Virus record (IMG/VR): IMGVR_UViG_3300034062_006701
Strand: one strand, 5' to 3'
DNA length: 64,000 nt
Source: a virus
Taxonomy: Duplodnaviria; Caudoviricetes
In this document: one piece after another, positions 752 to 56,882 of the stretch
Layout: each line of letters begins with the position of its first letter
Numbering within the stretch: position 1 is the stretch's first letter
Notes under the pieces: model-generated
The model's database searches: none
What the model saw: only the letters and a program-made list of their open reading frames with translations
Told to the model about the DNA's origin: nothing
Translations under genes and position numbers: made by a program

Positions 752-3700
752 ATGGAGGTTATTTCCCTTAATTCTACAAACTTTATCGGTCTCTCCACTG
801 CTTATACTCCAGATAAAACCGTAAAATTTGATCAGGAGGTATACTATACAGAACAGGGTGTTTCTCTACCTTTAGCGCAGGTTTTTACGGACATAAACGA
901 CAGCTCGACAAATAATTTCTCTAATCTATTTCTAACACAGGCAACAGCATTATCAAGCGTTGCATATATTGAAGATCTCGATCCGATTCTTGACGATAGT
1001 TTTACCACTTATTTAGCGGTTAATGCAATTGGTGGTATTAATGATAACACACGTTACCTGGTTGTAGAGGAGCCGGTGTTTACACAATCAGTTGCATCTA
1101 TTTCAATGTCAGGGGTACGCTCGAAAATAGATAATAGATATTTTTTCGATATAACATTTATCGATGGTAGGTATTGCAAGGTTGAACATGTTGTACAGAA
1201 TACCGTACGCTATCTTACCTGTGATATAGATGATCAATTATTTTTCTCCTTCAATTCAAATACAGATTACCTAGGTGAATTGAGTCCGCAGATTTTTGTG
1301 TATACATATGATAGAGAAGGTGATTTTCTTGTCTTATCAAAAACAATAAAAGATGTTCCGTACTTTTTAACATATAATTCATTGAGCGGTAATCTTGAAG
1401 CTGTACCGCCACTCACTGGTTCCAACACAGTACCGTATGCACCGAATGCAATTTTTGCATGTATACCGAGATCTGAAATTCCTAATGACACTAAGCTGGT
1501 TGACTCATGGGTAAGTTATCAAAACGATTTTAAAACAAATACACAAAACATAAACCCGTTACGTAGTTCAAAGGCAGTAAATACAAATTTGTTAATTAAT
1601 AGTGAATACAGTACTGTCACCGGCACTGAACTCGGTGTTAATGCATTGTCTCTTAAAAATACTAATACACCAGAAAATTTACAATCAAGAAACAATCCCT
1701 TTCAAGCTAATAAATCGCTCTTCTTAAATGAAAGTGATGTGGAACAGCGTGTATATAAAAAGCTTTTTACAGGTTCAAACCAAATTTTCGGTGACGATAA
1801 CATTACACTAGGATATGAATCCTATACTACTGATATATTACTACCAAAAGATAAGGTTACATATTTTCATGTTCCACAGATATTATATCCTTTCAAACAA
1901 ATTAATATTAGTGAATCAGGGTTAATAGAGGCAGGTGCTATAGCCGGTGATCACCCTGTTAAGTCAGATAAGATATTTAAAAAGCTTGCAGACGCAAAAT
2001 ATACTTCACCGTACGGTGAAGTTATTGACGAATCCAATGGAACGTTTTTATGCAGCTGGCTCTCGGGCAGTTCTGATATAAAGACTAAACCTATTTGGGT
2101 TGATAGATACTATAACCCTTCAAAAGTTACGTTTATCAATGCTCTTACAACGCGATCACTAAACGCGATTTCATATGACTCTGTATTTCAAGGCTTGGTT
2201 AAAGCAGCTGGTAACATACCGGGAACTGATGATGTTTTTGATACCCCTTCAAGTCTTGTTTTCGAGTCTGGTAGTTACTACGCATATCATCACTATGGTC
2301 CGAACGATGTAGTGAAATTTATTCAAACCTTTACACCGTACCTTATCGATAAAGGGATAGAGAGATTTTATTACACCAATCAGTCATCAGCTGTTCCTGA
2401 TGTTCGCAACGGTGAATATGTTTTTAACGGTAAAACGTATGGCGTTTCTAATCCTCTCTCTAGTATACAAATATCAAATCAATTTACCTTATCTTTTGAC
2501 ATGTTTAACAGTGATTGGTCTAAACCTTTAGGTTATCAAATATTTGGCAACTTCTTAGATGATGGGTTTGGTATTTTTAATCAAAATATCGTCACACCGA
2601 CGGTACTTGTAAATACAGTAACAGGTGTCAGTATTTTAAATACTGATTTAAGAGAGATAAAGAGCATAAACTTTACGTCTACACCGCGTGCATTTATACG
2701 TTCTAACTTTGGAGAAAATTATTCAGTAGTGTTTAATGACGGACTGCTTCGACAGTACACCTGCGACGATAATCCTGTTAATGAGACATTTTCACCTTTT
2801 CTTTCAAGTATTCTAGACTTTACAAATGATGATACAACAGCATACATCTTGTGCTCCAGTGCACCAGCATATACATTACTGGGTGTAAATTTGCAATCTA
2901 GCGCTATATCCGCTCTAAACCCGGCTCAATATACGGCTTATTTCGCGGCAGGAGCAGGTAGCGTTACTACAAATTTTGCAACTACAATAGAGAGATATAA
3001 CAATACCTTCTTTTTTACTCCGGGGACTGTATCACGTAGAATTTCAGATAAGATATATTATCTCACACAAGATAAAACAAAAATTCTCGAATGGAGTGAT
3101 ATTGGTTCGTCGACGACGGTAACAACTACCGCGTTTAGTTTAACAGGCACTAATAGCATCGCTGATTTTAATATAGATTTCGATGGCAATATTTGGATAT
3201 TGCAAAGTAAAAACGTATTTTACAAATATACGCAAAATAGAGAATTCCTATTATCTGGCACTCTTACATCCAACACATCATCATTAAAAACTGTTCAGCT
3301 CACCGGCAATGGTTCGAGAACATTTAAAATATCTAATAGCGGTTCAATTATACCGTCTGATTATATTGTAACAGTTGATGAAAGGTCGTTACGACCTATT
3401 TTCGATTATACCGTAACGGCAGATAGTATAACTTTCCTTTCACCTACTCTCTCCGGTAACATATACAGAGTGTCTCGACTTGTATACGAGGACACATATG
3501 CAAATTACAGAGTTAATTTTATAGCGGATTTTTATAACGGTGATTATAAGCGACATGTATTGTTTACCCGTGTTGGTTATAATGCACTAAATACTAGTAG
3601 CCTATCAGCACAAGCTTATCAATTTAATTTACTAGAAATGAACGGTACTCCTGTGATAAGCGCATTTGTTACTGCACCATCTGGCAATCCTGGACTGACA

Positions 3701-4372
3701 AATACTAACTTTATACGCGAATATGTGCAGGATGTCTACCCTGCAGCAAATTTAAATATTAACGCAATTACAAGAAACGTATATGATGATACTGATCTCT
3801 CTAATAACGAGATAGTGTTCAATCTTTCAGGGCTAGACCCTGGTTATCATCATTTTGCTGTACGGTTCGATGCATATCACGGGTTTATGTCGCTATTTGT
3901 GGATGGTCAAAAATCTGGTGATGTACAATTTGCGCCTAGAAAATATAAATTTAGTAATTTACTCTATCGACCGTTTCTTATCGGTACATCATGCTTTAAC
4001 AACTCCACACCTCTGTATCAGTATCTTAAGAAAGACTCTTATATTATAGATAATGTAAAAATCCGTAATCTTTATCTATACAGCATACCACTCAATGATT
4101 GTGATATTGTTATGCATGCACGTGAAAGTAGAGATATACAGGATATTCATTTTGATATTCCGTGTGGTAGACGTAATTACCTCGAAGAAATAGAGCGCTA
4201 TTTTAAAGCTACTATCCCGGGATCAAAATCTACGCAATATAATATTGTTTTACGTAATACTGGTATTACTAATGAAGAGTTAAGAAAAGCTCTCGAGGAA
4301 AGAATAGCTATAGTACTTGCTAACTCTGCTCCTGTCTATTCAAAACTAAATAAAATTAAGTGGGTGAATTAA
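752..4372 (+). CDS. Large virion/baseplate-associated protein with LamG-like domain(s)
   Basis: 1206 aa, S/T/N-rich and beta-rich. LamG-like segment HHFAVRFDAYHGFMSLFVDGQK...IRNLYLYSIPL. TATAAATA box 5 nt upstream. Confidence 0.6.
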   Translation: MEVISLNSTNFIGLSTAYTPDKTVKFDQEVYYTEQGVSLPLAQVFTDINDSSTNNFSNLFLTQATALSSVAYIEDLDPILDDSFTTYLAVNAIGGINDNTRYLVVEEPVFTQSVASISMSGVRSKIDNRYFFDITFIDGRYCKVEHVVQNTVRYLTCDIDDQLFFSFNSNTDYLGELSPQIFVYTYDREGDFLVLSKTIKDVPYFLTYNSLSGNLEAVPPLTGSNTVPYAPNAIFACIPRSEIPNDTKLVDSWVSYQNDFKTNTQNINPLRSSKAVNTNLLINSEYSTVTGTELGVNALSLKNTNTPENLQSRNNPFQANKSLFLNESDVEQRVYKKLFTGSNQIFGDDNITLGYESYTTDILLPKDKVTYFHVPQILYPFKQINISESGLIEAGAIAGDHPVKSDKIFKKLADAKYTSPYGEVIDESNGTFLCSWLSGSSDIKTKPIWVDRYYNPSKVTFINALTTRSLNAISYDSVFQGLVKAAGNIPGTDDVFDTPSSLVFESGSYYAYHHYGPNDVVKFIQTFTPYLIDKGIERFYYTNQSSAVPDVRNGEYVFNGKTYGVSNPLSSIQISNQFTLSFDMFNSDWSKPLGYQIFGNFLDDGFGIFNQNIVTPTVLVNTVTGVSILNTDLREIKSINFTSTPRAFIRSNFGENYSVVFNDGLLRQYTCDDNPVNETFSPFLSSILDFTNDDTTAYILCSSAPAYTLLGVNLQSSAISALNPAQYTAYFAAGAGSVTTNFATTIERYNNTFFFTPGTVSRRISDKIYYLTQDKTKILEWSDIGSSTTVTTTAFSLTGTNSIADFNIDFDGNIWILQSKNVFYKYTQNREFLLSGTLTSNTSSLKTVQLTGNGSRTFKISNSGSIIPSDYIVTVDERSLRPIFDYTVTADSITFLSPTLSGNIYRVSRLVYEDTYANYRVNFIADFYNGDYKRHVLFTRVGYNALNTSSLSAQAYQFNLLEMNGTPVISAFVTAPSGNPGLTNTNFIREYVQDVYPAANLNINAITRNVYDDTDLSNNEIVFNLSGLDPGYHHFAVRFDAYHGFMSLFVDGQKSGDVQFAPRKYKFSNLLYRPFLIGTSCFNNSTPLYQYLKKDSYIIDNVKIRNLYLYSIPLNDCDIVMHARESRDIQDIHFDIPCGRRNYLEEIERYFKATIPGSKSTQYNIVLRNTGITNEELRKALEERIAIVLANSAPVYSKLNKIKWVN

Positions 4373-9169: not shown

Positions 9170-9210
9170 TACCGTTTGATGTTTTGAGTAAATTAAATAA
9201 ATATATTAAT

Positions 9211-9780
9211 ATGAAAAGATTAGCTTTAGTGTGTATGCTTTTAACAGGGTGTACCGTATACACCGAAAAACAAACAGAAGCAGTAAGTCAGTCTGTTTAT
9301 GCTACTAAAGATTCCATTGATTTAGCTAGAATTGATTTGGCTGAGAGTTATATCAGTGAAACTACAAAATTAATTAACCCTCCTAAGAAAAGAATTCAAA
9401 TTAGTGCTGTTTATCAAAAACCAATACAGGTTAATGACTCAAAACAGAGGATTGTAATTGTTCCAGAACAATATAAGAGTGATAAAGTTGTAGTAGTTAA
9501 CTCTACGGATTACGATAATCTTTTAAAGGATAAGGATATTGCTATTCAATTAAAGAAAGACAATGAGCTCTTAACAAAAGCTAGATCTGAATTTGATGCT
9601 GAACGTACAAAGCAACAAGAAATGAGAGACAGGATGGTAAAAGATCTTAACATTATGCAAAAGAAGTTAGTAGAGAAGGATTTAGCTATTCTTTGGCGAA
9701 ATATTATTATCGTAGCTCTTCTTGGCGTGATTGGTGGTTATGTCTACCTTAGAATGAATAGTGGGTTTAAACTTTTTTAA
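9211..9780 (+). CDS. Lipoprotein with C-terminal TM helix; candidate unimolecular spanin
   Basis: Start reassigned to ATG 9211. MKRLALVCMLLTG-C lipobox, coiled-coil-like middle, C-terminal hydrophobic ILWRNIIIVALLGVIGGYVYL. Immediately upstream of the holin-like and endolysin genes. Confidence 0.6.
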   Translation: MKRLALVCMLLTGCTVYTEKQTEAVSQSVYATKDSIDLARIDLAESYISETTKLINPPKKRIQISAVYQKPIQVNDSKQRIVIVPEQYKSDKVVVVNSTDYDNLLKDKDIAIQLKKDNELLTKARSEFDAERTKQQEMRDRMVKDLNIMQKKLVEKDLAILWRNIIIVALLGVIGGYVYLRMNSGFKLF

Positions 9781-9795
9781 AAGATAAATATCTAT

Positions 9796-10227
9796 ATGTG
9801 GCAGAATATTGTCAATATAGCTAAATCCACGACTGCATTCTTGCAGAATGGTGTTGCTCCACCCAATACACCTACTGTGTTAAAAACAAAGATGGAGAAT
9901 ACTAATCATCTTTCTTCGAAGAAATTCTTTATTATCTTCACATCAGTCTTAATGTTAGCTGCTCTATATTACTCTAGTGTTGCTATTCTTTTAGCTATAC
10001 AGATGCCAGAGCATGTAACAGCTTTTGTGACTCTTTTTTCTAAGACCATAGAGATATTTGCCATTATCATTGCCTCATATCTCGGTGTTCAAGCTGCTGT
10101 AGAGTTAAAATATAACAGTGCTTCAAACGCTGAAGTAAAGGGAGAAGTTATAGTAGAACAGAAGGAAGTAATTTTAACTCACAATACAAAAGAAGACGAT
10201 TATGATATTTCGGGGGTAATAATATGA
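9796..10227 (+). CDS. Holin-like membrane protein (about 2 TM helices)
   Basis: Two hydrophobic stretches (KKFFIIFTSVLMLAALYYSSVAILLAI; IEIFAIIIASYLGVQAAV) and a charged C-terminus. ATGA overlap with the endolysin gene. Confidence 0.55.
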   Translation: MWQNIVNIAKSTTAFLQNGVAPPNTPTVLKTKMENTNHLSSKKFFIIFTSVLMLAALYYSSVAILLAIQMPEHVTAFVTLFSKTIEIFAIIIASYLGVQAAVELKYNSASNAEVKGEVIVEQKEVILTHNTKEDDYDISGVII

Positions 10228-36916: not shown

Positions 36917-39367
36917 TTATGCTACGATTTCAGAGAAGTTTTGGCTTGTTCTTGTTGCGTAGAAGTTAACTAGTATGAACTCAGCTGTTCTAACCGGTTT
37001 GATATAAACATCAATTACGAGTGTATTATCATCAATCACAGAAGATGTATTGTTTCTTTCGTCACAGATTAGCAAGTAATCATATAAACCAGCTGTATTC
37101 TTTGCATTATCAAAGATTGGTGTGAGTAGGTTTTTAATCTGTGTTCTCGTAAAGAGCGTATTAGGCTCAAATACGAATGCTCTTGCAACAGTGTTAGTCT
37201 GATTTTCGAGAGTTAAGAACAGTCTACGAACATTAATGCGATCAAAGGCACTTGGCTGCTTCTGTGCTGTCTTTTGTCCGTAGATTACAAATCCTTCATT
37301 CGGGAAGAATACTACAGGGTTAAGTGCAATCTTGTAGAGCTGGTCGCGTTGCTTTTGCTTTGGATAAAACGCGAGATCTGTTATACCTGTTACTACACCG
37401 CGTGTAAACCCAGCAGGTGCAGACCAAGGCCGGTAATTCGCATCTGTACCAGCTATCGCAGCTGCAGCAAAGCCGGAGAACGGTACCCATACCTGTCTAT
37501 TCGAGGCTTGATCCGCTACCTTGACTGCGTTAGCGTAGATGGCTGTGTAGCTATTGTTTATGAATGAGAATTGGTTGCGGAGCGGCCAGTAGATGTTGTC
37601 CGAGAAATTATTCGTCGGGTCATCTAAAGTCTTAACACCGTTCTCAACAAGTATATTCGTTAATGGGTCAGCAATAAAGAGGTGATCCTTACGACGGCTT
37701 GCAGCAAAGCTTACAAACTGACTTGCTACAGCTGCGTAATTTTGAGCGATAGCTGTATTTACACCAGATCCATCCTGAGCTGTAAGTCCGTTGACATCGG
37801 TACCGACATATGGTACACTATCATCGAAGTAGCCAGACGTAGCAGGGTTAAATGAATTTGCGTAGACTGTACCAAGACCTCCTTCGAGTGTTAGTGAGAG
37901 AGGATATATCTCGCTATTCTCGATAGTATTAAACATGTTAGTTAGCTTCTGTGGTACATTACCTATCTTTTGTGTTGAAAGATCAATGGTACTGTAATCA
38001 CCGAGAGCTATAAGCTTATCGTTTGAACCATATGTATTTACTAGAGCTCCATAAGCACCTGATGTTGCACCCATTCTTGTTGCGTATGTATCAATGAATG
38101 GTGGAAGCGGAATGTTGTTCAGTGCGCTAGCGCTTAATACATCGACAGCTGTTGGTGTAATACGAGGTGCGCTTAGGAAACGAACACGACGTGTCGGTAC
38201 CCCTTGTGCGTCTAACCATGTTCCAATGTTCTTACCTGAGATAAATGGGTTAACAATTGTTACGATATTTGAAGACGCATCATCAACATTTTCTACATAA
38301 TAGCTGATTGCCGGTCCACCGTTTGTATCATTAATCTGACGATAGTAGTCGAAGGATGCATTATAGCTTTCCTGTAAAATGTAGTCAAGCTGAATTGTAT
38401 CGGGTGAGAATGTTGATTGACGGAGCTTAAATACACCGAGGTTAATAGTGTCGTTATAGTTACTGGATGATGTATCGAATGTCGCGATGTTTTCAACAAC
38501 TTCAGATACACTATTGCTTATACCTGACGATGTAGCGGAGAGCGCGAAATTTAAGCGCTGACTTGGTACGTTAATGTAATTTGCTGGAGATATAAACGTA
38601 CTCGTGTTGTTTACCGAATTTACACCGTTGAAGTTATCAAATGATGTTGAAGGGTTAAGGGCAGAATTATCAATAATTCCGAGATAAGATCCTTCAAAAC
38701 GTGAGTTGATTGATGACTGTGACTTGTTTAATACGACGAGACCGGCATTACCGAGACTTGAAAGTGTATTAAATGATGTTACAGGGCTTGCATCTGGTCC
38801 GCTAATTGTTGCGGATAGACCGGCGGAGGATGACCATGCAAATGCATCTCCGCGAAGAACAGATAGATACTGTTCCTCTGAAAGAGTTACGTGTGTAGGT
38901 GCACCGAAATTGTATGTAATTCCTGTAGCGGAAGCAGGGTAACTGAGGTTAGTAGATGTAAGTGTTACAAACCCTGTACCGGTAACAGAAGGATAGCCTG
39001 TAGCATTAAGACTGTCAATAAAGCCGGCGGAGAGCTGAGTAACGACAACCGGGTAAACAAGAGCGCTGTACTGGTTTGAATAACCAAGTCCTGCGTTTTC
39101 ACCGTACGGTAGACGATATACAGTTACGTTTGATGGTGATTGGAAGACAGCCTTTGTTGTATGATAGAAATATCTTTCAGCTGCATTCGTCGGTGTACCA
39201 AAAATCTGTTCGAATTCTGATAACGTGCTAACTTGTACCGGGTCGGATGATGGGCCTTTTGAGGCGAAGCCAGTTACTAAAACATTTGTTTGTGAGCCTA
39301 GATTTGCTCTGAGTGAAAGATCGACTTCACTGATCTGAACTCCAGGACTTTGAATTGTACGTGCCAT
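36917..39367 (-). CDS. gp18: Tail sheath protein gp18
   Basis: SPGVQISEVDLS; PWSAPAGFTRG; RDQLYKIALNPV; SAFDRINVRRLF; IKPVRTAEFILVNFYATRT. Confidence 0.97.
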   Translation of the reverse strand: MARTIQSPGVQISEVDLSLRANLGSQTNVLVTGFASKGPSSDPVQVSTLSEFEQIFGTPTNAAERYFYHTTKAVFQSPSNVTVYRLPYGENAGLGYSNQYSALVYPVVVTQLSAGFIDSLNATGYPSVTGTGFVTLTSTNLSYPASATGITYNFGAPTHVTLSEEQYLSVLRGDAFAWSSSAGLSATISGPDASPVTSFNTLSSLGNAGLVVLNKSQSSINSRFEGSYLGIIDNSALNPSTSFDNFNGVNSVNNTSTFISPANYINVPSQRLNFALSATSSGISNSVSEVVENIATFDTSSSNYNDTINLGVFKLRQSTFSPDTIQLDYILQESYNASFDYYRQINDTNGGPAISYYVENVDDASSNIVTIVNPFISGKNIGTWLDAQGVPTRRVRFLSAPRITPTAVDVLSASALNNIPLPPFIDTYATRMGATSGAYGALVNTYGSNDKLIALGDYSTIDLSTQKIGNVPQKLTNMFNTIENSEIYPLSLTLEGGLGTVYANSFNPATSGYFDDSVPYVGTDVNGLTAQDGSGVNTAIAQNYAAVASQFVSFAASRRKDHLFIADPLTNILVENGVKTLDDPTNNFSDNIYWPLRNQFSFINNSYTAIYANAVKVADQASNRQVWVPFSGFAAAAIAGTDANYRPWSAPAGFTRGVVTGITDLAFYPKQKQRDQLYKIALNPVVFFPNEGFVIYGQKTAQKQPSAFDRINVRRLFLTLENQTNTVARAFVFEPNTLFTRTQIKNLLTPIFDNAKNTAGLYDYLLICDERNNTSSVIDDNTLVIDVYIKPVRTAEFILVNFYATRTSQNFSEIVA

Positions 39368-39373
39368 ATAAAG

Positions 39374-39381
39374 TATTTATA
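39374..39381 (-). promoter_or_regulatory. T4-type late promoter TATAAATA
   Basis: 6 nt before the sheath ATG. Confidence 0.8.
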
Positions 39382-40037: not shown

Positions 40038-41759
40038 TTAATTTAGATATGCCCATCCTTGTTGCTGAAGATATGTGAGATCTGTTTGATCTGGCTCGTT
40101 ACCTGTACTAATTAATATAGGCAGTGGAATTGCGTTGTCAGAGTCTCTCTCGTTACTATACATGGATGTAGGGTTAATAAAATATTTAATCCCATAGTCC
40201 ATAGACTTAATAACTTGCGGGCGCTTGTTGTCATCGAGCTCTACGATTTCATAATATTTTTCTGTAACTTCATTCTCTAAAATCATTAATGTCCAAATAA
40301 GACTCATAACCCTATCATCGTGGCTATCACTACCTGACTTTGCAGCCCATGTACCGTTCGGGTATCTTACAAATCCCTTGAGTTCAGCTAATGTTTTTAT
40401 GTCACGTATACGGACAACGTTAAGTTCATTAATCCAATAGCGCATATTAGTCACACCTTTGTATTTGGTGTTTGTATGCGCAACAACCCCAGGCTTGTTA
40501 AAAATTTTATCACCGGCCTTTGAACCGTAATTTACAATATTTTCATATCTTAGGTTATTTTTTAGCTGATCTACAACCTGTGCACCGCAATTATTTCGTT
40601 CAATTAATGCCGGGGGGTTTCCCCAGTGTTGTAGAATTTCATGTAGTTTTGTTGTAAAATTGTATGGGCTAATGTTACGGTTATGGTAAATTGCAACCTG
40701 TTCTATATTACGTAAATCGGTAATATCTAGAACCTGTACGACAGATGCAGCTTCACCGACACCCTCAGCTACATCGACACCAACTACATATAACCGCTCC
40801 TTATCTGGTTCTCTCCATAATAGATAATGTCCTTCATCAAACACAAATGTCGGCTCTGCGCATTCTGCCTTTAACTTTTCGAAGAATGCTTCGTCAATAG
40901 CGCTCTCACCAGTTTGTAGGAAAGTATTGCCAAATTCTTGGTCAAACTTTTCTCTACTACCCATCTCGCGAATGGTTTTATTTTTCCATTTTTCATCTCT
41001 ACCCGGCACCTCCCACCAATCAACACGTTCTGCTTTCCACCCATTATGTTTTTCAGGGTCCTGCTCCATAGCTCCTGAATACAGATCATGAAATAAATTA
41101 CCTGTGCCGTTTGGTGTACTAGCTACAAATATTTTTGATTTTTTAGATGAAGATATAATAGGGTATACAGATGCCCAAAATTCCTCTACTAAATGATTAT
41201 CAATAAAGGCTAGCTCATCAAGTAAAACAACGTTTACAGAATCACCTCTACCTGCATCACTGCTTGTGGTACTGATACCAATACTCGACCCATTTGCTAA
41301 AGACATTGATGTTTTACCATATTCAATGACACCTGGCTTTAAATAGTTCGGTAGTTTTTCATATGCCATTCTAACACGCTTAAAGATATTAATAGCGGTC
41401 GACTCTTTATTTGCCACAATAAGCACGCGTTGATCTTCTTGGAAACAAACGATCCAAAGAGCGTAAATTGTGAAGAGAGTCGTTTTACCACTCTGTCTAC
41501 TTGATAACATACACACAAACCGACTGTCACGTAGTGATCGGAGAATTCTCTTTTGATATAAATGAAGCTGAATCTTTATTTTACCTTGATCGAGATTAGT
41601 AATATAAAAGAAGTTCTCTGCAAAATATAAAATGTTTTTTTTACATTTTTCAATATCCTTAACCCATTCAGGGTTTGCACCATAATCAAACATTGCGTCT
41701 GGTGTCGGTAGACTTTCATTACCTAGATAAAACTGCTGTTTCTCTTTTTTATTAGCCAT
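40038..41759 (-). CDS. gp17: Terminase large subunit gp17
   Basis: SRQSGKTT, Walker B LLDELAF, ASTPNG, nuclease GVDVAEG and HDDRVMS. Start taken as ATG 41759; 41780 is the alternative. Confidence 0.97.
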   Translation of the reverse strand: MANKKEKQQFYLGNESLPTPDAMFDYGANPEWVKDIEKCKKNILYFAENFFYITNLDQGKIKIQLHLYQKRILRSLRDSRFVCMLSSRQSGKTTLFTIYALWIVCFQEDQRVLIVANKESTAINIFKRVRMAYEKLPNYLKPGVIEYGKTSMSLANGSSIGISTTSSDAGRGDSVNVVLLDELAFIDNHLVEEFWASVYPIISSSKKSKIFVASTPNGTGNLFHDLYSGAMEQDPEKHNGWKAERVDWWEVPGRDEKWKNKTIREMGSREKFDQEFGNTFLQTGESAIDEAFFEKLKAECAEPTFVFDEGHYLLWREPDKERLYVVGVDVAEGVGEAASVVQVLDITDLRNIEQVAIYHNRNISPYNFTTKLHEILQHWGNPPALIERNNCGAQVVDQLKNNLRYENIVNYGSKAGDKIFNKPGVVAHTNTKYKGVTNMRYWINELNVVRIRDIKTLAELKGFVRYPNGTWAAKSGSDSHDDRVMSLIWTLMILENEVTEKYYEIVELDDNKRPQVIKSMDYGIKYFINPTSMYSNERDSDNAIPLPILISTGNEPDQTDLTYLQQQGWAYLN

Positions 41760-41763
41760 TTGA

Positions 41764-41771
41764 TATAAATA
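41764..41771 (+). promoter_or_regulatory. T4-type late promoter TATAAATA
   Basis: 11 nt before ATG 41783. Confidence 0.7.
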
Positions 41772-41782
41772 ATTAAGCATTT

Positions 41783-42658
41783 ATGAACAAAACACGCAAT
41801 CTCGTTGAAATGGGTGAATTTTATTCTTCAACCGTACTTACAGAGTCTAAGAAGAACAGCCAGTCTAAATTCCCTGGCAAGGATACATTTACAAAGCCTG
41901 GTAAGACTGTCGATGCAGAAACAGTAAAGACAGGAAAAGCATTTAATGATGCAGGTCCTGTCCGCAACAACAAAGAAGCTCTCGTAAAGGCGCAGGAGCC
42001 TGTTGCCGTGAAAGATAAGGAAACATTTACAGGTGTGGAAAATTTTTCTCAAGTATCTGGAAAAAAATTAAAGGAGAATATAAATACTTTTATGAACAAA
42101 TCTATTTTTGATCGCTTATACGAGGACGTAATGTCCGATAACATTAATTCACCAGCTGATCTCGAACAGGCTGACGCAGAGGCTCTTGAGCTTCCTGGTA
42201 CAGAGGTTGAGGAAGGCGAAGTAACAATCACACTTGATCGCGAGCTCGCAAAGAAGCTTCATGACGTTCTTATGACCGTTCTTGACTCAGAAGAAGAAGC
42301 GCCTGAGACTGAAGAAGAAGGTGCACCTGAAGAGGGTGAAATCTCTGATGAGGCAGCTGAAGATGAGCATGAAGATGAAGAGCATGAAGATGAAGAGCAT
42401 AAGGCAAAGTATGAAGCAACTGAACTCACTGAGCTTCCAGCTAGCAAAGGTCACTCTTTAACAGGTAAGAGCAACAAGGTTCACGGTACAGCTACAAGTC
42501 TTGTATCAAAGGGTGAGGGTGAAGGCAAGGTTAAGGGTGAAATCGATGCAAAGGGCTCTGATCTTAGCGACAGCAAGGGTCATTCCTTAACAAGCAAGAA
42601 CAATAAGGTTACATCAAAGACATCCAAAGTTGGATCATACCTCGCGGGTCTTAAGTAA
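41783..42658 (+). CDS. Acidic late protein, possible prohead core/internal protein
   Basis: Glu-rich middle, Lys/Ser/Gly-rich tail, several (L/I)xE sites. TATAAATA upstream and a strong terminator downstream. Confidence 0.65.
   Translation: MNKTRNLVEMGEFYSSTVLTESKKNSQSKFPGKDTFTKPGKTVDAETVKTGKAFNDAGPVRNNKEALVKAQEPVAVKDKETFTGVENFSQVSGKKLKENINTFMNKSIFDRLYEDVMSDNINSPADLEQADAEALELPGTEVEEGEVTITLDRELAKKLHDVLMTVLDSEEEAPETEEEGAPEEGEISDEAAEDEHEDEEHEDEEHKAKYEATELTELPASKGHSLTGKSNKVHGTATSLVSKGEGEGKVKGEIDAKGSDLSDSKGHSLTSKNNKVTSKTSKVGSYLAGLK
42079..42086 (+). promoter_or_regulatory. Internal T4-type late promoter TATAAATA
   Basis: Lies inside a CDS, 5 nt before an in-frame ATG. Confidence 0.6.
42092..42658 (+). 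CDS. Putative nested in-frame short isoform (MNKSIFDRLYE...)
   Basis: TATAAATA at 42079-42086, then 5 nt, then in-frame ATG 42092 (309 nt from 41783). Confidence 0.55.
   Translation: MNKSIFDRLYEDVMSDNINSPADLEQADAEALELPGTEVEEGEVTITLDRELAKKLHDVLMTVLDSEEEAPETEEEGAPEEGEISDEAAEDEHEDEEHEDEEHKAKYEATELTELPASKGHSLTGKSNKVHGTATSLVSKGEGEGKVKGEIDAKGSDLSDSKGHSLTSKNNKVTSKTSKVGSYLAGLK
42443..42610 (+). repeat. Duplicated SKGHSLTxKxNKV motif
   Basis: Copies start at 42443 and 42572, 129 nt apart. A 15-nt GAAGATGAAGAGCAT tandem also occurs at about 42371-42400. Confidence 0.8.
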
Positions 42659-42684: not shown

Positions 42685-42716
42685 AAAAGGGCCTTAGCAA
42701 TAAGGCCCTTTTTTTT
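42685..42716 (+). terminator. Intrinsic terminator
   Basis: AAAAGGGCCTTA-GCAA-TAAGGCCCTTTT hairpin with GNRA loop, running into a T tract. Confidence 0.9.
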
Positions 42717-45627: not shown

Positions 45628-45661
45628 GTGAAATTATTTAATCGCTGCAATAAATACTATT

Positions 45662-46063
45662 ATGAGTTATTTTAAGTCAAGATTCGACTATATTTTAGAG
45701 GCTGACAGTGAAGAAGCGCCGGTGCCTTCAACGGACCGTGAAGCAATGGCTCAGCAACTTGATACAGCGGCTCCTGAAGATCTCGACGTACGGCCTGCCG
45801 AAAGAGCCGCACGAATTGATCACTCAAAATTAGAACAAGCTAATGCTCTTAACGATTGGATTAAACAGATAGATGTGTTTATAAATTTTTTAAACGGTAC
45901 AGACAGCACATCAATACAATCTCAACTACACGCTGCGTCTTGTGATACAATGTTTGAAGATATAGCGAGAAGTGAAAAAAAGAAAATTGCACGTCTTGCT
46001 GCTGAACTTAGCTCGCTTAGTGAGTCTTTCAAAGGTTATCTTATTTCATCAAACGATCGCTGA
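45662..46063 (+). CDS. Hypothetical late protein with capsid-targeting-like leader
   Basis: MSYFKSRFDYILE-A. TAAATA 5 nt upstream. Confidence 0.65.
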   Translation: MSYFKSRFDYILEADSEEAPVPSTDREAMAQQLDTAAPEDLDVRPAERAARIDHSKLEQANALNDWIKQIDVFINFLNGTDSTSIQSQLHAASCDTMFEDIARSEKKKIARLAAELSSLSESFKGYLISSNDR

Positions 46064-52763: not shown

Positions 52764-53444
52764 TTAATAGCTAGCATACTCTTGTAAAAACTTTGATTGG
52801 TTTTCAACGAATGTTTTATCATTAATATCTCTCAACCCAGGTGAATTATGGTACGATAAAATCGGTACAACTCCAATCTTAAGTTTTTTCTTATTAGCGT
52901 CTATGCAACTCGAGATATCGTAATGGTGAAATGTATAGTTCTCGTTGAACATCCATTTTACTTCTTTAGTTTTGTTGACGTTAACCGACATAAATGCACC
53001 ATCAATTATTGCAACTCTTGCAGGACTTGGTCCGAAATTTGTTATAGATGTTGTTACACCATCTGGTAGGTAATGACCTGCAAAGCCTCTTAAATTATTA
53101 CCATGAAAGCCTCCGCACATGATATGCCATAGCGCTGGAGCTTTAATAACGGGGTTTAAACCCCCGGCTAAACCAATGATATCGTATTGCTTGTGACCTT
53201 CTTCAAGTTTTGTGAGAAAGCCTGCATCATCAATCCACATATCATCATGGATAAATAGAATTTGTGAGTAGTTCTTAGTAAGAAATTTATTGTACGCCTC
53301 CGATAAGCCTGTTTTATTTTTTGTAACAAATTGCAGTTTATCTAAGAACATTCCACTATTAGACTTCTCGAGTTTAGCGAGGCTTTTATAAAGAAGGGTT
53401 TCCTTATAGTCAGAGTGTTGTGTGCATGAGACAATAGCTATCAT
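52764..53444 (-). CDS. GT-A (family 2-like) glycosyltransferase
   Basis: LSEAYN, FIHDD, IIGLAG, IDGAFM, FHHYDISSC, H-x-S-x-G. Confidence 0.8.
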   Translation of the reverse strand: MIAIVSCTQHSDYKETLLYKSLAKLEKSNSGMFLDKLQFVTKNKTGLSEAYNKFLTKNYSQILFIHDDMWIDDAGFLTKLEEGHKQYDIIGLAGGLNPVIKAPALWHIMCGGFHGNNLRGFAGHYLPDGVTTSITNFGPSPARVAIIDGAFMSVNVNKTKEVKWMFNENYTFHHYDISSCIDANKKKLKIGVVPILSYHNSPGLRDINDKTFVENQSKFLQEYASY

Positions 53445-54127
53445 ATAATAAAAAAGGGTGAATTCTTAATAAAACCGCCAACGGATGTTAATCCTTCCGG
53501 AGTTAACAAATACAATACACCTTCTTCGAGTGGTTCAAGGTTGTTGTCTGGTAGTGAAGAAAAATCATTCGTAAGGAGGTTAGCATATAATGTACTGCCA
53601 GAGCGTGCAATATAAATGTTATGTGATGTTTTACTATATATCCAGAGTCCGAATGTACCTTCAAGCTTCGATAGTGCTGTGCATATTACTTCAACTTCAT
53701 TTCCCGGACACTGTTCTGAATATTTTTCAATTAAAGCAGGTATTACTGATGAGTCCACTTCATTGTATTTTGAAGTATCCTTTATAAGGGCTTTAAGCTT
53801 TAAATCATTAGTCAAAACACCATTATGTGCAACTACCCATTCTCCGCAATAAAATGGATGAGAAGTACTTTCATCAAAGATGCGCTTTGCGCTTGTCGGC
53901 GCCTGGGTGTGTCCGAGATAGAAATAGAAATCTGATGGCTTCATCTGAATATCACTGTTGTTTATAGTCATATTCTTTGACAGCTCGATAGCTCCTTCTT
54001 TCTTTATACATGCATCATACGTGTGGCTAAGAAATAAACCGCCGTATGCGAAGGTACCTCGTTCTCTACCCTTTTGATACAGCTTCGAATATACATTAAA
54101 ATTTGCACTTCCAAAAATTGAACACAT
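53441..54127 (-). CDS. Class II (Ntn) glutamine amidotransferase
   Basis: N-terminal M-C-S-I-F-G nucleophile Cys; LGHTQAPT; HPF; AHNGVLTN; VDSSVI. Confidence 0.88.
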   Translation of the reverse strand: MCSIFGSANFNVYSKLYQKGRERGTFAYGGLFLSHTYDACIKKEGAIELSKNMTINNSDIQMKPSDFYFYLGHTQAPTSAKRIFDESTSHPFYCGEWVVAHNGVLTNDLKLKALIKDTSKYNEVDSSVIPALIEKYSEQCPGNEVEVICTALSKLEGTFGLWIYSKTSHNIYIARSGSTLYANLLTNDFSSLPDNNLEPLEEGVLYLLTPEGLTSVGGFIKNSPFFII

Positions 54128-55053: not shown

Positions 55054-55752
55054 CTAGTCGATTAACTTCTCCCATGGAATACTCTTTGAATAAGAGAGTG
55101 GGTCTCTAGTTCCTGCTTGTATAAACCCTTGAAGGCGTAAAGAGCAAGCCGTGCATTCACCGCACGCTGTGTCAGTACCTTCATAACAAGTCCATGTCTG
55201 GTTAAAATCAACGCCTAATGATATACCCATTTCAATAATTTCCTGCTTTGATTTTGTAATTAACGGTGCCTCTATATTAATTTTATTCATGCGATTTAAC
55301 TTTATAACATCGTTAATTGCATGAATAAATGAATCCGCACCATCCCAAAAACCTGCAACACTATCAGCCTGTGCGGCTCCGTGATAAACAGTACTTGCAC
55401 CAAAGCTCTCTGCAAACGAGCATGCAATACTTAACAACATCATGTTTCTAAACGGTACATAATTTACTGTTTGCGCCTCGCCGCATACGTCTCTTGTCTT
55501 AGCTACATTAATACTGTGGTCAGTTAGTGACGATGCACCTATGTCCTTAAAAAATGGTAAGTTAATAATTTGATGCTTGCGGATTTTATCCTTTAAAGCA
55601 TTTACCTGAAATTGTGCGCATTCGAGCTCTTTAATATGTCTCTGACCATAATCAAAAGAGATAGCATACACGTCGTCATAATTCGCAGCTGCATGGTGTA
55701 GTAACACAGTACTATCCATACCACCGGAAATTGGCACAACAACGCCGCTCAT
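55054..55752 (-). CDS. queC: QueC-family 7-cyano-7-deazaguanine synthase
   Basis: SGGMDS PP-loop, FDYGQRH, YVPFRN, Zn site TWTCY...CGECTAC..R. Confidence 0.92.
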   Translation of the reverse strand: MSGVVVPISGGMDSTVLLHHAAANYDDVYAISFDYGQRHIKELECAQFQVNALKDKIRKHQIINLPFFKDIGASSLTDHSINVAKTRDVCGEAQTVNYVPFRNMMLLSIACSFAESFGASTVYHGAAQADSVAGFWDGADSFIHAINDVIKLNRMNKINIEAPLITKSKQEIIEMGISLGVDFNQTWTCYEGTDTACGECTACSLRLQGFIQAGTRDPLSYSKSIPWEKLID

Positions 55753-56882
55753 TATTCTACTTCTGCCTCAACTGTATCATCCACAATCTCACTATCAGCT
55801 TGATGGTATCTGTAATCTTCCTTAAGAGCTTTATCGAGCGCAGGTATTATAAATTCTTCATAAAAATTTGCATCTTTAGTAAAGTTTTTGGCATACCCGA
55901 GCTTATCACCTTTCTTATACTTACCACCATCAACACCAATTGTGTATGTTGCACCGTTTTGTTCTACAATACCACGTGAAGCAGCCATTGCGAGAAGACC
56001 GCTATACTTATTGAGGCCTGACTTAAATGAGAGATACATTTCAATCTCAAGAAATTGAGGAATAAATCGGTTCTTTGCAGTTAATGCACGGAGAGTTACT
56101 CCACTGTATTTGTTGGCTTCTGATAGTTTTTCATCTTCAACGTTAGAGAACTCACCTTCACCGGCTTTCTCATTTCTCTTCGCAAGCTGTACTAGGATGC
56201 TCGCCATATAAACCGGGCCAGATCCGCCAGCCTGTGACTTAATCAACGATGGATACATCGCTGCAGGGTCAGAATATGTATGATTAACAAATAATATTGT
56301 TGTTTGCGCTTTTGCAGCCTTATAGGTTAGTGTTCGAAGCATCGATTTCAATGCTTTAGCGCGCATACCCATATCCACCGCAGACTTGTCCTTCAATGCG
56401 TCGTCAAGTTCCTTTTGTGATGCTAGATTACCCAGACTATCAATGCAGATTATTATCTTACCATGTTGGTTATTCGCTATCACTTTATCTAAAAGTGCTG
56501 ATACTTGATTACGACACTTCTCGATTGTATCGATTGGTACGTATTTCACTCTTTCAGGATCAAGACCTACACCGCGTACAGAGTTTTTATCAACAGCGAT
56601 CTCAGAGTCAAAAATAACCGGGATAACACCCTTTTTCTGAGCGTTTGCAAGAATCTTACCTGTAATGAGAGTTTTACCTGTACCGGATTCACCGCTAAAG
56701 CCTATAATTCTACCCTTAGGTACTCCGCCATTTCGAAGATCACCAGTAAGAATAGCATTTAAGGCATAGCACCCTGTATCAAAGCATTCAGTAAAGTTAC
56801 TAAGAGCGTTTTCAGAGAGAAAACATGCATCTGAATTATGCTCGTCAATGATTGCTAGAGTCTTGAGTAGGTCTTTATCCAT
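55752..56882 (-). CDS. uvsX: RecA-like recombinase UvsX
   Basis: DTGCYALNAILTG, Walker A GESGTGKT, FDSE, IDSLGNL, VNHTY. Confidence 0.93.
   Translation of the reverse strand: MDKDLLKTLAIIDEHNSDACFLSENALSNFTECFDTGCYALNAILTGDLRNGGVPKGRIIGFSGESGTGKTLITGKILANAQKKGVIPVIFDSEIAVDKNSVRGVGLDPERVKYVPIDTIEKCRNQVSALLDKVIANNQHGKIIICIDSLGNLASQKELDDALKDKSAVDMGMRAKALKSMLRTLTYKAAKAQTTILFVNHTYSDPAAMYPSLIKSQAGGSGPVYMASILVQLAKRNEKAGEGEFSNVEDEKLSEANKYSGVTLRALTAKNRFIPQFLEIEMYLSFKSGLNKYSGLLAMAASRGIVEQNGATYTIGVDGGKYKKGDKLGYAKNFTKDANFYEEFIIPALDKALKEDYRYHQADSEIVDDTVEAEVE

Follow-up and report, generated by a model that had tools for sequence, protein, structure and literature searches.

A conserved late-promoter box inside a coding sequence points to two co-terminal isoforms of one gene in uncultured T4-like phages

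Introduction

Can a single reading frame of a T4-like phage carry, within its own codons, a second promoter that opens directly onto an in-frame start codon and yields a shorter, co-terminal protein? This question is raised by a 291-codon gene of an uncultured freshwater T4-like myophage, in which the initial annotation had noticed a late-promoter-type box closely followed by an in-frame ATG, and had proposed either two co-terminal isoforms made from separate transcripts or the joining of two tagged genes once a stop codon was lost. Nested genes are familiar in other phages. In lambda C/Nu3, Mu I/Z and P2 gpO a scaffold is nested in a protease gene, and these cases, as well as T7 4A/4B and phiX174 A/A*, give a co-terminal C-terminal isoform from an in-frame internal start; all of them differ from the layout considered here in that one mRNA carries both starts, the internal one having a ribosome-binding site of its own, and no separate promoter is involved. 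The late promoter of phage T4 is built of an 8-bp TATA box located about one helical turn 5′ of the transcription start and followed by an AT-rich segment (PMC2988020).

Results

A promoter-like box and an in-frame ATG lie within the gene

The window, i.e. the whole 64-kb stretch of DNA that was analysed, has a G+C content of about 36% and gave no DNA match to cultured phages. Its gene content includes a sheath gene (36917-39367), two tube-like genes and, on the minus strand, a large terminase, identified by its tblastn match to T4-like terminases. The gene under study is flanked by the divergent terminase gene on one side and a neck gene (PHROG ‘head closure Hc2’) on the other, with the following features.

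41783-42658, plus strand: long open reading frame of 291 aa, comprising an N-terminal extension (residues 1-103) and a core (residues 104-291)
42092-42658, plus strand: nested in-frame open reading frame of the predicted short isoform, 188 aa, beginning MNKSIFDRLYEDVM
41764-41771, plus strand: putative upstream late-promoter box TATAAATA of the long form, 11 nt 5′ of ATG 41783
42079-42086, plus strand: putative internal late-promoter box TATAAATA in codons Asn99-Ile100-Asn101-Thr102, with the conserved core TAAATA at 42081-42086
42060-42067, plus strand: A-tract GAAAAAAA, 25-32 nt 5′ of the internal ATG, in Glu/Gly-Lys codons
42685-42720, plus strand: intrinsic terminator, with a hairpin at 42685-42712 (12-bp stem, 4-nt loop) and a T run
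40038-41758, minus strand: divergent large terminase gene, listed with the open reading frame start ATG 41780
739-754, 9788-9798, 29739-29751 (minus), 39368-39381 (minus) and 45649-45664: examples of gene starts preceded by TAAATA

The box of the long form (41764-41771) falls within the short spacer separating the gene from the divergent terminase gene. Judged from the comparison with conserved relatives, the terminase probably starts at ATG 41758 (MANKKEKQQ...) and not at 41780, an assignment on which the ‘...gccat’ conserved directly 5′ of the long-form box in relatives also bears. A terminase start at 41758 would leave a 24-nt divergent spacer (41758-41782) that holds the TATAAATA box of the long form.

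Both internal elements described by the initial annotation were found, namely a perfect TATAAATA at 42079-42086 inside the codons for E-N-I-N-T-F, and, after the 5-nt spacer CTTTT, the in-frame ATG at 42092-42094 (Met104), which opens the 188-aa frame. A distance of 5 nt was indeed the modal one, since 20 TAAATA boxes in the window stand 3-11 nt before gene starts that lack a Shine-Dalgarno sequence, nine of them at exactly 5 nt. The late genes of the window share the consensus [A/T]TAAATA[A/C]T-N3-ATG, likewise without Shine-Dalgarno sequence, and the internal box matches it. A hydrophobic-x-E leader is present in both products as well, as LVE at residues 7-9 and LYE at residues 112-114. The MNK start shared by the two products had also been pointed out; it is common to both here but is not conserved in relatives, whose long forms start with MNK, MNQ, MNG, MNL or MTR and whose short starts read MNK, MSK, MTK or MK, and because of this the match is regarded as incidental.

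Taken by itself, the pattern in a single window is weak evidence, because TATAAATA is not enriched there (8 observed versus 12.6 expected), and it is the comparison with relatives that settles its significance. TAAATA occurs in 103 copies on both strands of the window, about 40 of which are intragenic and on the same strand as the gene that holds them; the internal box is the only one of these followed by an in-frame ATG at 5 nt, while the chance expectation of such a pattern in a single window is roughly 0.3. The intragenic copies are presumably silent or weak, and the hexamer alone does not make a promoter. A second candidate nested start was seen in the 1206-aa open reading frame 752-4372, at 1578-1591, where an in-frame TTG stands 5 nt after an intragenic TAAATA.

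The box, its spacing and the ATG are conserved among relatives

Homologues of the protein were collected by a word-indexed search, which found 290, nearly all of them full length (270-340 aa), and by an exhaustive search, which yielded 370 clusters at 50% identity. Two sets of loci were compared at the DNA level: a first set of 80 IMG/VR loci, 79 of them with the motif, which provided 63 unique long-form coding sequences, and a second set, seeded with distant members, which added 49 further unique loci. Met104 is invariant throughout, i.e. in an alignment of 40 sequences with identities as low as 46%, in the 63 unique coding sequences and in the 49 distant loci, and the best-conserved block of the 40-sequence alignment, I-N-[N/T]-F-M-[N/S]-K-S-I-F-D-[R/K]-L-[Y/F]-E-D-V-M, surrounds it. 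All 79 motif loci read ...ATA AAT A[A/C]T xxT ATG, with the frame open for 92-122 codons upstream and the box-to-ATG spacing being 5 nt in every one of them.

At the codon level, Ile100 is encoded by ATA in 63/63 unique sequences (versus 29% ATA usage gene-wide), Asn101 by AAT in 63/63 (versus 64% AAT usage) and Lys94, a codon of the A-tract, by AAA in 63/63 (versus 52% AAA usage). These three are the only conserved degenerate columns without synonymous change in the 63 sequences, whereas all others show mixed codons. A synplot-like scan with a sliding window of seven codons displayed one trough of synonymous diversity, with an observed/expected ratio of 0.10 at codon 103; it spans codons 91-109, versus ratios of 0.7-1.3 over the rest of the gene. 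The family median dS is about 1.4, and synonymous sites are saturated elsewhere.

The distant loci behave in the same manner. TAAATA is kept in 49/49 of them, followed by the ATG after 5 nt (43/49) or 8 nt (6/49), and Asn is preceded by I, L or V, for which only xTA codons (ATA, CTA, TTA or GTA) are used. Since Leu and Val are always CTA, TTA or GTA, the hexamer survives amino-acid replacement. Between the Met and the conserved KS-FD block the distance varies by 0-3 residues, with indels occurring after the ATG and none between box and ATG; with this spacing variable and that of box to ATG fixed, the ATG is therefore tied to the box, not to the protein. The initial annotation had named conservation of the box at synonymous sites as a check on its reading, and the box proved conserved, as attested by the trough and by the xTA codon kept for I, L and V alike. 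These alignments show strong selection at the nucleotide level on the internal box, on the ATG and on the distance between them. An A5-7 tract is also kept at the same distance from the ATG in distant relatives, and the A-tract at 42060-42067 probably belongs to the internal promoter as an upstream element.

The nested start is the gene start in short-only relatives

At least seven relatives are short-only (L146, L165, L088, L121, probably L150, L179/L180 and L181), and their gene start is the same ATG, with TAAATA plus 5 or 8 nt before it. In the first five, L150 again with the qualifier probably, the frame 5′ of the ATG is closed within 5-20 codons, and the gene encodes 179-216 aa and lies 80-100 nt from the divergent terminase gene. 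The short-only loci have the same 107-aa and 222-aa genes downstream, and the upstream gene, where seen, is mostly the divergent terminase. As the short-only genes start at the same ATG with the same box, the nested start is a complete, working gene start there. Furthermore, their spacers, 51-100 nt in length, are A-tract-rich and contain no other promoter candidate, and therefore the box must serve transcription in these loci.

The last phased A-tract in the short-only spacers is the counterpart of GAAAAAA at 42060-42067, which is kept as Glu-Lys codons in the long forms. In L146 (1420-1503) and L179 (1270-1377), three to four A-tracts phased at about 10 nt are located directly 5′ of the TAAATA box, which suggests that they could act as a curved-DNA or UP-like upstream element of the late promoter; the T4 late-promoter elements listed in PMC2988020 do not include phased A-tracts.

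A quick tree, unrooted in effect, placed the short-only forms in at least two places among the long forms. The N-terminal extension is a variable module; the short isoform would represent the family core and the ~100-residue extension an optional, protein-coding add-on. In L102 (IMGVR_UViG_3300027782_006440), P0146 and P0175 the conserved box and ATG are preceded by far longer N-terminal extensions, of about 260-350 residues.

The fusion of two tagged genes by stop-codon loss, which the initial annotation had offered as its second option, is weakly supported; no relative carries a free-standing N-terminal gene. A split into two genes was likewise looked for among the relatives, and the one apparent case, L178, turned out to be a long form whose extension is interrupted by one nonsense codon; it also carries the sole box variant seen, TAAACA. 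Three further candidates for short or split homologues were rejected, P0031 and P0132 as contig-end truncations and L176 as a frameshifted copy.

The long form is also under selection, and one terminator follows the gene

Sequence comparison shows that the long form, too, is real and under protein-level selection, because its extension has a dN/dS of 0.30 (codons 2-90; 0.34 for the core, codons 115-291) and a box of its own. A TAAATA box lies 3-13 nt (mode 6) upstream of the long-form ATG in 56 of the 61 unique relatives, and the other five have TATAAGTA. Moreover, conserved residues of the extension are encoded by varied codons (e.g. Gly58 and Pro59), and its indels are in multiples of three.

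One strong terminator had been described as closing both products, and the hairpin with its T run is present at 42685-42712. When a terminator was defined as a hairpin with a folding energy of -7 kcal/mol or lower that abuts a T run within 110 nt of the stop codon, one was identified after the gene in 100/100 unique relatives. The next gene downstream has its own box (CTTAAATA + 5 nt + GTG 42731). With the terminator universal and the next gene so equipped, the putative internal promoter therefore does not serve downstream genes.

Two promoter classes stand at the same short distance from start codons

As in the T4 late promoter, an AT-rich segment follows the internal box, with the sequence CTTTT in this phage and the form [A/C]T[T/A]xT both in relatives and at the other late starts of the window. 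Homologues of T4 gp55 are encoded in the records of 5/5 long relatives (E ~1e-9, 36-42% identity), and none was found within the 64-kb window. No Shine-Dalgarno sequence at the internal start is conserved in relatives; the window itself has an AAGGAG 15 nt upstream, which the relatives do not share.

Replication genes of the window (e.g. 55752-56882, 53441-54127 and 23881-24333, all on the minus strand) are preceded by sigma-70-like -35/-10 boxes 7-11 nt before the ATG. That two promoter classes occupy the same short distance argues that this position marks the message 5′ end, i.e. that the mRNA is leaderless. The short message is thus probably leaderless, and leaderless or near-leaderless messages seem to be the rule throughout this phage.

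The protein is predicted to be mostly disordered

The 291-aa protein is acidic in its centre and ends in a C-terminal tail rich in Lys and Gly, in which a Lys-rich ‘KGxSLxGKxNKV’ is repeated. Its AlphaFold2 model, with a mean pLDDT of 53 and helices at residues 3-29, 108-117, 124-134 and 153-170, predicts that it is mostly disordered. No match was obtained with Pfam, PHROG (query and 21 distant members) or PDB sequence profiles, nor by tblastn in cultured phages; a search of the ESM Atlas gave nothing usable, and a comparison of residues 1-103 with 104-291 revealed no internal duplication.

The initial annotation had proposed a head-core protein whose stoichiometry is set by the two products. 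In T4 itself, the leaders of the prohead-core proteins gp67, gp21, gp22 and gp24 end with L/I-x-E at residues 6-10 (T4 record), similar to the long form with its LVE at residue 9 and the short form with its LYE at residue 11. In the 40-sequence alignment neither L112 nor E114 varies, and E9 is found in at least 90%; the [L]-x-E motif is short and weakly specific. The head-core role did not gain from the homology searches, since no homology to T4 core proteins was detected (gp22, gp67, gp68 and the internal proteins, by sequence or profile), and the gene lies outside the portal-protease-scaffold-capsid cluster. The head-core and stoichiometry idea is weakly supported, by the [LIV]-x-E motif, the disordered acidic/basic make-up and the gp21-type protease encoded by relatives. 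With low confidence we propose that the protein is a disordered component of the virion or of head assembly, which the gp21-type protease would trim after LVE9 and LYE114. In the relative G001 (L081 2111-3442), the gp21-type protease gene is followed by a gene for a Gly/Ala-rich protein of 443 aa, mostly of low complexity, which is a separate scaffold candidate in the position of the T4 scaffold gp22.

Discussion

Two co-terminal isoforms of 291 and 188 aa made from separate transcripts, the first option of the initial annotation, provide the best reading of the selection on box and ATG, the short-only starts, the two boxes and the single terminator. We consider it likely that the isoforms come from two late promoters with one terminator, and production of the 188-residue short form next to the long one is very probable. 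In this mechanism, late transcription would proceed from two T4-type (gp55-dependent) promoters sharing one terminator. The first box (41764-41771) would give rise to the message for the 291-aa protein, while the second (42079-42086), aided by the A-tract about 30 nt 5′ of the ATG, would direct an internal transcription start, which the 5-nt spacer is predicted to place on, or adjacent to, the first base of ATG 42092. The message from the second box would be leaderless and monocistronic, and its translation would produce the 188-aa C-terminal isoform. We infer that the box is a promoter rather than a translation signal, that its transcript is leaderless and that both proteins accumulate.

The short isoform could also be made by internal translation initiation only, as in lambda C/Nu3 or T4 gene 21, namely that on the mRNA from the upstream promoter an A/U-rich stretch recruits ribosomes to the internal AUG, with the A-tract, TAAATA and the AAA-TCT-ATT-TTT after the ATG keeping the region unstructured. 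The absence of RNA structure around the internal start (z = 0.59), the synonymous constraint reaching past the ATG to about codon 109 and the annotation of T4 gene 21 with an internal translation start all agree with such a signal. It is nonetheless unlikely in view of the short-only spacers, where 51-100 nt offer no promoter candidate other than the box, of the hexamer being the late-promoter core before 20 other genes at the same spacing, of the sigma-70-like -10 boxes that occupy the same position before early genes, and of the lack of a conserved Shine-Dalgarno sequence. Quite improbable is a silent relic of an ancestral short gene, or some other DNA-level constraint, with only the 291-aa protein made: the short-only relatives do attest that this ATG has served, or still serves, as a gene start, and about 40 other same-strand intragenic TAAATA copies have no obvious role, yet a relic should decay at synonymous sites, and at a dS of about 1.4 the box is unchanged in ~110 unique sequences, through I/L/V replacements as well. 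It might finally be supposed that only the short gene is real and that the 103 upstream codons are an open untranslated leader and an annotation artefact, as the family core equals the short form and some relatives have no extension; the dN/dS of 0.30, the varied codons at conserved residues, the indels in threes and the extension's own TAAATA box before a conserved ATG speak so directly against this that we give it hardly any credence.

Nested co-terminal isoforms are already known in T4 and lambda, and what is distinctive of the present gene is the putative promoter fused to the internal start codon, together with unusually clear comparative evidence. A close likeness is T4 gene 17 of the same phage family, where internal promoters and in-frame starts lead to co-terminal isoforms of a late protein, three shorter in-frame products being given in RefSeq with ‘internal transcription and in-frame translation of gene 17’; it encodes, however, another protein, the terminase, and no TATAAATA is present near the T4 internal starts. 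T4 genes 49 and 21 also give nested co-terminal products from one frame (T4 RefSeq), but gene 21 is annotated as internal translation initiation only, and the short form of gene 49 starts at an internal GTG without a box. Gene 49 was rejected as a case of an internal late promoter, its late-promoter-like box lying upstream of the long start. The nested genes of lambda, Mu, P2, T7 and phiX174 have no sequence relationship to the gene described here.

As for the promoter itself, the T4 late promoter (TATAAATA, gp55/gp33/gp45) is matched by the perfect 8-mer and the AT-rich segment after it, and gp55 homologues occur in relatives; it differs in that here only the 6-mer TAAATA is conserved in the clade and that the box stands 5 nt from the start codon, implying a leaderless mRNA. 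T4 messages, in contrast, have leaders and Shine-Dalgarno sites, whereas this 5-nt arrangement of box and ATG is conserved in >100 relatives. The locus adds independent comparative support for TAAATA-N5-ATG as a unit of transcription and translation start in uncultured aquatic T4-like phages, where the idea of a leaderless layout had earlier rested on spacing statistics alone. It also offers a clean example of a probable promoter inside a coding sequence, visible as a trough at synonymous sites and as a forced I/L/V-Asn dipeptide.

A further proposal, more speculative and in our view rather doubtful, is that the short form would be the working head or virion protein, and the ~100-residue extension a module for regulation or targeting that can be detached. 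How much protein is tagged and how much untagged would then depend purely on the relative strengths of the two late promoters, one of which doubles as an obligatory Ile/Leu/Val-Asn dipeptide and fires a leaderless message. If true, protein sequence would be directly imposed by a DNA promoter in a whole clade of aquatic T4-like phages, and the repeated loss of the extension in short-only lineages would be a natural experiment tuning assembly stoichiometry.

For annotation, the gene should carry two products, and at contig ends gene callers already switch from one start to the other (P0031 and P0132). Elsewhere in the window, the open reading frame 9184-9780 is listed with the TTG start 9184, and AATAAATA + 7 nt + ATG 9211 looks like its true start.
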